Assembly (NCBI GenBank): GCA_951406725.2
Contig: OX597837.1
Coordinates: 23,684,001 to 23,748,000, forward strand
Length of the DNA: 64,000 nucleotides
Origin: Octopus vulgaris
Lineage: Eukaryota
Reading direction: 5' to 3'
Positions 43,050 through 43,364 of this stretch are shown here, piece after piece. Position 1 is the stretch's first letter. Each line of letters starts with the position of its first letter. The notes below the pieces were generated by a model, which saw only the letters and a list, made by a program, of their open reading frames with translations, was not told the origin of the DNA and did not search any database. Made by a program: the position numbers and the translations under genes.

Positions 43050-43141
43050 TATATATATATATATATATATATATAAATATATATATGTAAGAAATATTGA
43101 ATTTCTAAATCTCTCGTAGAGACATGTACGGTGGTGGGGCG

Positions 43142-43364
43142 ATAGAATGGTTGTATACTGTCAATCTAACAAGAACGTGACAGTAGGGGGTACACCACCG
43201 CTGTATAGCCCTAGGAAGCATCGAACGCTTCCTGATAGCTTTGACACAGGGAAAAAATGTGTCAAAGCTATCAGGAGGCGTTCGATGCTTCCTAGGGCTA
43301 TACAGCGGTGGTGTACCCCCTACTGTTACGTTCTTGTTAGATTGACAGTATACAACCATTCTAT
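43142..43364. repeat. Near-perfect fold-back inverted repeat, 107-bp arms, 9-nt loop
   Basis: Arms 43142-43248 and 43258-43364; two mismatches, both G-U compatible in a + strand RNA. Confidence 0.97.

Follow-up and report, generated by a model that had tools for sequence, protein, structure and literature searches.

A fold-back palindrome in a (TA)n tract of the Octopus vulgaris genome, a likely by-product of Penelope-like element insertion

Introduction

Penelope-like elements (PLEs) leave insertions of unusual architecture. An inverted, 5'-truncated copy, a tail of 30-40 bp that is often found at only one end, and (TA)n targets are described in PMC8557442, whose supplement records the (TA)n preference for the Naiad and Hydra PLEs of octopus. 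According to PMC3846280, the tail is optional on one of the two inverted pLTRs, and head-to-head junctions are palindromic. In vitro work described in PMC11167929 had both target strands cut and extended, and the tail is delimited by two internal start sites. Thirty recently active Penelope families are listed for O. vulgaris (PMC13282606).

The locus described here is a fold-back at 43087-43364 of a 64,000-nucleotide window from O. vulgaris (contig OX597837.1 of assembly GCA_951406725.2, positions 23,684,001 to 23,748,000, forward strand). It resembles EN+ PLEs with inverted pLTRs (Penelope/Poseidon, Neptune, Hydra and Naiad), as described in PMC8557442 and PMC3846280, in its head-to-head copy, its extension at one end, its (TA)n surroundings, the microhomology or palindrome at its inverted junction, and its membership in a family with very many short copies. 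It differs from them in consisting of 162 + 116 nt of 3' end only, with a 55-nt tail, no hammerhead retained and no ORF linked. The Poseidon element of Anolis (PAc), as characterized in PMC11167929, is alike in its AT-rich target and in a tail that lies between two fixed 3' ends, and extension on two strands would yield a two-armed product. In PAc the start sites are internal to the ORF and follow a hammerhead, whereas the arm and tail of the octopus fold-back hold neither an ORF start nor a hammerhead. A minimal type I hammerhead-like motif, of the sort found in non-LTR retrozymes and solo PLE pLTRs in accounts that also treat PLE hammerheads (bioRxiv 10.64898/2026.07.22.740005; PMC6155905), occurs as well in a repeat of about 200 nt immediately upstream. 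In contrast to the retrozymes, that repeat is a dispersed monomer here, with no tandem array, and its family is not that of the fold-back.

Other comparable systems are defined by the RNA that they produce. The palindromic Harbinger repeats of Xenopus and inverted Alu pairs, discussed in PMC5625713, are self-folding ADAR substrates that need no partner, as the fold-back would be; its palindrome was formed per insertion with a variable junction, whereas Harbinger repeats derive from a palindromic consensus. Drosophila hpRNA loci, sources of endo-siRNA (PMC5392987), share the geometry of a long fold-back transcript. Those loci need Dicer-2, which molluscs reportedly lack.

Results

Self-comparison of the window delimits a palindrome with arms of 107 bp each, at 43142-43248 and 43258-43364, around a 9-nt loop, GGGAAAAAA, at 43249-43257; pairing of the arms ends at position 108. 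The arms differ at two sites in total (43229T/43277G and 43179G/43327T), each of which pairs as G-U on the + strand, in agreement with what an initial annotation had described from the letters alone. That annotation also correctly described a one-sided structure: the left arm carries a 55-nt extension at 43087-43141 that reaches a (TA)n tract at 43050-43086 (18.5 copies, 94% matches), and the right arm runs out in a short (TA)n stretch at 43362-43372, which overlaps its last letters. The two tracts are likely the left and right parts of a single insertion target. A hairpin internal to the left arm, noted earlier as well, is present at 43213-43233 and is a feature of the repeat family described below. 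The RNA fold predicted for 43087-43400 has an energy of -224.3 kcal/mol; shuffled sequences average -79.2 kcal/mol (z -27), and 0 of 100 reach the native value. The arms had been called CpG-rich; they are enriched over the window as a whole (observed/expected 0.71 in each arm, 0.33 in the window), but modestly, with just four CpG per arm. The right flank, 43373-43535, is single-copy within the window. Rfam returned no match at gathering level anywhere in the window. Relaxed to E<=10, it matched 42500-44200 at 39 places, in every case below gathering level and with a generic hairpin or TA type of match (for example mir-75); these were dismissed.

The surrounding DNA is that of an animal, dense in microsatellites and in SINE-like repeats that resemble those of octopus; motifs of these SINEs had no match in the literature searched. 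For a repeat-derived frame in the window, the better of two matches is an Octopus vulgaris protein at 66% identity. Tandem arrays occur at 9120-10298 (period 28, 42 copies, 97%), 37074-37552 (period 23, 21 copies), 6578-7234 (period 212, 3 copies) and 19730-20087 (period 177, 2 copies). A weak zf-RVT match at 33003-33332 on the - strand (E 0.0017, below cut-off) is likely a LINE remnant. Inverted pairs of diverged SINE-like repeats at 43567-44041 (76%) and 27551-27866 (70%) could also form double-stranded RNA.

Some part of 43087-43535 is matched by 20 of 24 sequencing runs (12 studies, 6 organisms), four of which were used as evidence. The family was surveyed in contigs only, aligned to 43087-43280 at 80% likeness, from runs designated X1, X2, X9 and X3. 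X1 is possibly the assembly's own source; X2 and X3 come from other studies, X3 from another organism; and X9 is guessed to be an RNA run, none of the runs being recorded as RNA. Contigs aligned to the family numbered 1642 in X1, 1861 in X2, 96 in X9 and 934 in X3. The genomic-scale runs contain 934-1861 family contigs each; summed contig depth was not taken as a measure of copy number. The arms belong to an abundant repeat family.

The survey also reveals where members of this family end. Contigs cover the 55-nt extension in all four runs, so the extension is family sequence, present at one end only of the fold-back. In the list of 24 loose contig ends (188 others lie outside it), (TA)n-like or AT-rich DNA precedes 43088/43090 in all four runs, and AT-rich DNA precedes 43142 in 10 contigs of X2 and 8 of X3; the family therefore has two fixed outer ends, and the 55-nt tail, which reads on the - strand, likely spans the gap between two reverse-transcription start sites. 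A third group among the listed ends, before 43243 (7 contigs in X1, 5 in X2, 3 in X3), has one common upstream sequence. Because contigs of X1, X2 and X3 reach the loop from this sequence, the loop counts as native sequence of the right-arm copy, on the + strand, and in the same three runs family sequence runs on beyond it. The left arm is described as a 5'-truncated family copy on the - strand, which is likely the sense strand, and the right arm as an inverted 5'-truncated copy on the + strand without the tail.

A natural micro-hairpin flanks the loop, and the join shows at least 3 bp of microhomology (ACA/TGT). Constancy of the loop position across the family, a check set by the initial annotation, was not borne out: other family junctions join 43165 to 43253 (X1), 43178 to 43253 (X2) and 43191 to 43169 (X1), each seen in a single contig; the short side of the first two measures 23 letters, below the 30-letter threshold for caution. 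Most of the family depth at 43229 reads C, with shares of 97% for X1, 84% for X2 and 71% for X3, and a G>A variant at 43179 is absent from the listed family differences, so that both arm differences are C-to-T on the + strand with respect to the family majority. With the majority allele, the internal hairpin is retained on the outward-reading strand (-11.1 kcal/mol) and weakened on the opposite strand (-7.0 kcal/mol), which lends modest support to a head-to-head polarity. Summed family depth drops about 4- to 25-fold across the internal hairpin, 43213-43240, possibly at a preferred reverse-transcription stop or fold-back site, a drop to which truncation, a diverged subfamily (the X3 loose end at 43224) or graph breakage could each contribute. 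In one subfamily, 43165-43191 is replaced by a different sequence in all four runs; another subfamily diverges past 43224 in X3.

Searches for a parent element returned little. Neither of two arm frames matched Pfam, no longer homologue of the arm translations was found, and none of the 32 contig pieces listed, of 4562, is long enough to show a direct tandem pLTR. A metagenome scan with an arm 20-mer gave one locus (L001), a chance match of 22 of 23 letters in coding DNA, which was dismissed. We found no published description of the family in the literature, and it may already sit in Repbase, Dfam or an O. vulgaris repeat library.

The (TA)n tract to the left of the fold-back closes a repeat of about 200 nt on the + strand, at 42846-43049, whose left boundary is approximate. 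It contains a minimal type I hammerhead-like motif at 42914-42948, with its core starting at 42918 and with all the parts of such motifs: a stem I of 4 bp, the core CUGACGA (for CUGANGA), a stem II of 3 bp, GAAA, a palindromic helix III, ACGU, and a GUU triplet (for NUH). Alignment of 42850-43098 with 20942-21189 identifies a second copy in the window at 88% identity over 252 nt. Both copies have the same core, the 4-bp stem I, the palindromic helix III and the GUU triplet, about 100 nt upstream of the (TA)n end, and the stem changes between them preserve pairing (A-U/G-U in stem I, a longer stem II in the other copy). The layout is that of the PLE hammerheads in the supplement of PMC8557442, which in Hydra-clade PLEs lie about 100 nt from the 3' end. 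The repeat is likely the 3' end, or pLTR-like part, of another PLE family.

An upstream hammerhead on the + strand had been part of the initial annotation, and this much of it stands: the motif is there, and by hammerhead numbering the cut is predicted to fall after 42944, 197 nt ahead of the left arm. Its activity as a monomer is doubtful, since competing folds are more stable: the canonical fold lies 3-7 kcal/mol above the predicted minimum in the two copies (-2.0 against -5.1 and -0.4 against -7.7 kcal/mol). Rfam recognizes no hammerhead here at gathering level or at E<=10. By analogy, cleavage would need a dimer or a protein; the one PLE hammerhead whose assay is described in PMC11167929 cut with protein only, and no read ends matched its site. 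A metagenome scan with the hammerhead-core pattern gave 0 loci. A second candidate hammerhead, suggested inside the arm by the word CUGAUAG, was rejected on inspection, with core positions 8-9 swapped and no stem II. Elsewhere in the window, a 47-nt piece present on the - strand at 11902-11948 and 9033-9079 (98% identical) is another type I hammerhead look-alike, with CUGAGGA, GAAA and a 3-bp helix III; a GUC triplet and a stem I of 6 bp are present at 11.9 kb, and at 9.0 kb the 3' side of stem I is missing.

Three short-loop palindromes were found by self-comparison of the window, at 21243-21637, 43142-43364 and 51475-51641; a stricter, ungapped scan recovers the first two. They are mutually unrelated in sequence, yet each sits between TA-rich tracts and each has a one-sided unpaired extension, of about 64, 55 and about 37 nt in that order. 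At 20942-21637, the second hammerhead-repeat copy is followed by (TA)n, the extension of about 64 nt and a fold-back with arms of about 195 bp, which differ by 10 substitutions and one 7-nt indel. The third, at 51472-51678, has (TA)n on both sides, its extension of about 37 nt on the right, a hairpin in its loop and no hammerhead head nearby. Arm transitions that pair as G-U on the + strand number 3, 2 and 1 in the three fold-backs, and those that do so on the - strand 5, 0 and 1, the third count coming from arms aligned over 72 nt only. At 6 against 6, wobbles show no strand bias.

The hammerhead repeat is a family separate from the fold-back, as its 88% copy precedes an unrelated fold-back, which counts against a designed unit of hammerhead and hairpin. 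Both hammerhead heads in the window (2 of 2) nevertheless adjoin fold-backs, with the tail facing the head. Given about 36 TA sites and three fold-backs, the post-hoc probability of this is about 0.005, with n=2.

Discussion

The fold-back consists of two short 5'-truncated copies of one family set head to head in (TA)n, likely the by-product of a single PLE insertion, a reading to which we assign a probability of about three in four. It is likely an ordinary PLE scar and not a purpose-built small-RNA gene. Three features known from PLE insertions are found. There is a head-to-head inverted 5'-truncated copy, oriented on the evidence of the fixed outer ends and the strand-specific hairpin; there is a short tail at one end with two fixed 3' ends, although it measures 55 nt where 30-40 is usual; and the target is (TA)n or AT-rich on both sides, as for Naiad, Neptune and Hydra. 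The type I hammerhead that PLE clades with hammerheads carry within about 100-200 nt of the 3' end is absent from 43087-43364, where the pattern CUGANGA..GAAA has no match on either strand; it could lie further 5', and Naiads lack one. Pfam on two frames, the homologue search and a scan of the window tied no PLE reverse transcriptase or GIY-YIG ORF to the family, as is expected given that the window holds the last 162 nt of a truncated 3' end, and no PLE protein remnant was recognized in the window. The published ends of octopus Naiad consensus sequences showed no match to the family by eye, nor did two exact arm motifs occur in the supplement of PMC8557442; Hydra-1_Obim was compared through its 5' part and hammerhead row only. 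The assignment to PLEs is accordingly no more than likely. A target-site duplication is unreadable because the target is itself (TA)n.

In the mechanism that we envisage, a PLE endonuclease would nick both strands of a (TA)n tract, the one in which an unrelated PLE fragment with a hammerhead ends on its 3' side. Each nick would prime reverse transcription on element RNA, one at the start site of the tail and the other at the tail-less site, and both cDNAs would stop early, one at 162 nt and the other at about 116-119 nt. A microhomology of 3-6 nt, provided by the natural micro-hairpin, could then join them at their 3' ends, and a surplus of 9 nt in one cDNA would be left as the loop. Two later C-to-T changes, or one change together with a template allele, would account for the two wobbles. 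Self-priming on antisense RNA is a conceivable variant. Snap-back of a single sense-templated cDNA was considered and rejected: a start at the tail end should give the opposite loop polarity, and a tail-less start could not give the tail. The arms differ at 2 of 107 sites and the hammerhead repeats by 12%, which suggests, though it does not prove, that the fold-back is younger than the hammerhead repeats.

Given its post-hoc probability, the adjacency of both hammerhead heads to fold-backs is poorly explained by independent insertion. A shared preference for (TA)n tracts that are long and pure could be the reason, as could homing to the ends of PLEs or a joint insertion. An unlikely alternative is that hammerhead repeat and fold-back are coupled, through one insertion with a template jump at (TA)n or through PLE homing, so as to give a transcript with a ribozyme-made 5' end and a long hairpin. 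The succession of head, (TA)n, tail and fold-back in two of two cases would fit such coupling, and secondary insertion of PLEs into PLEs and template jumps are described in PMC3846280. The two fold-backs concerned are unrelated in sequence, however, and the third has no head; the loose ends before the tail agree poorly (0.50-0.72), as diverse flanks would; and the case comprises two instances of a weak hammerhead, of a kind for which the assay in PMC11167929 speaks of cleavage with protein only and of no matching read ends. We think it quite improbable that the octopod hammerhead repeat systematically captures the head-to-head insertions of other PLEs, with transcribed, ribozyme-cut hairpins feeding ADAR and Dicer-1/Piwi.

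The TA found at both outer ends of the palindrome would suit a TA-targeting MITE of the Tc1/mariner type whose long terminal inverted repeats form the palindrome, lying beside an unrelated 55-nt piece. PMC13282606 lists active Tc1-mariner elements, as well as MITEs, in O. vulgaris, and palindromic DNA-transposon repeats are editing targets in frog (PMC5625713). This origin nonetheless has a poor chance of being correct. The 55-nt extension belongs to the family and runs into the arm without a break, family sequence passes the loop, junctions vary, and a one-sided extension is common to three unrelated families; symmetric terminal inverted repeats with a constant interior are not what is seen.

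Twin priming in LINE-1 produces inverted junctions joined at microhomology, and the junction found here has that character. SINE- and LINE-like repeats are plentiful in the window, and another (TA)n-targeting non-LTR retroelement, of LINE or SINE type, might have been the agent. LINE twin priming, however, inverts the upstream part of one RNA, without duplication of the 3' end. In the octopus fold-back both copies contain the same 3'-terminal 107 nt, the ends are fixed at two places and poly(A) is absent, and we regard twin priming as very improbable.

The initial annotation had favored a hairpin precursor of endo-siRNA launched by the hammerhead. One part of that proposal holds: RNA folding predicts that any + strand read-through would form a fully paired duplex of 107 bp, on the strand of the hammerhead. 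The selected design does not hold. The two wobbles, noted earlier as falling on that strand and as perhaps due to chance, are both C-to-T changes from the family majority, and the 6 to 6 split over three fold-backs carries no bias; compensatory changes were not found, and the loop is not constant from junction to junction, so that the marks of a structure under selection are missing. The machinery is a further objection. DICER2, siAGO and an endo-siRNA signature are reported to be absent from molluscs (PMC11114477; PMC12479628), statements general to molluscs and not specific to O. vulgaris, and this disfavors an endo-siRNA role.

Evidence on the RNA itself comes from X9, the probable RNA run. 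Among the 34 listed family differences, 20 reach at least 2% in X9 and stay below 0.3% in the three other runs; 11 of the 20 are A>G or T>C, 3 are G>A or C>T, and 6 are transversions. ADAR prefers a 5' U neighbor, and 7 of the 11 editing-like changes have one, against 20 of 58 sites in the arm (p 0.03). This would fit double-stranded family RNA, and with it a selected hairpin gene, but the excess over the reverse transitions is weak (11 against 3, p 0.07), is not specific to the locus and has no matched DNA. Editing analysis, an earlier suggestion, yields in this way a weak hint of A-to-I-like change at the level of the family, one not tied to the locus. That the editing-like changes all lie in the arm and not in the tail (11 of 11, p 0.005) was set aside as non-specific; the other 9 differences private to X9 also lie in the arm. 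A selected hairpin-RNA gene we consider highly improbable. If read through, the hairpin would most likely serve as an ADAR substrate and not as a gene dedicated to siRNA. The family-level hint agrees with what is known of self-folding repeats and with the very high signal of hyper-editing that PMC5625713 describes in octopus.

A fold-back chimera of sequencing or assembly is barely credible and the palindrome is by most signs likely to be genuine DNA: PLE inverted structures are said in PMC8557442 to trouble assemblies, and none of the listed independent contigs spans the exact loop junction with 31 letters per side (the aligned stretch had 23 nt of the right arm), but there are two differences between the arms, the right arm stops precisely where the family has its second natural end, only one copy has the loop as native sequence, inverted junctions of the family occur in runs of two studies, and the arms of the sister fold-back at 21.2-21.6 kb have diverged by 10 substitutions and a 7-nt indel.

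The origin of PLE inverted structures is named as a task in PMC8557442, and self-priming on antisense RNA has been proposed in PMC3846280. The fold-back, read as a PLE insertion by-product, is a clean transposon scar, and the many short two-armed copies of its family permit a direct test of how such structures arise, one that would ask whether the arms derive from one template or two, which arm owns the loop, and what microhomology lies at the join. Coupling of hammerhead heads to fold-backs, if true genome-wide, would be new; and if fold-backs were captured systematically, the result would be a silencing cassette built by transposons, its hairpins made up of sequence from unrelated transposons, in an animal that lacks a dedicated pathway for endo-siRNA. 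Insertions such as this one may contribute to the perfect double-stranded RNA that is reported to be unusually abundant in octopus, and to its hyper-editing (PMC5625713).
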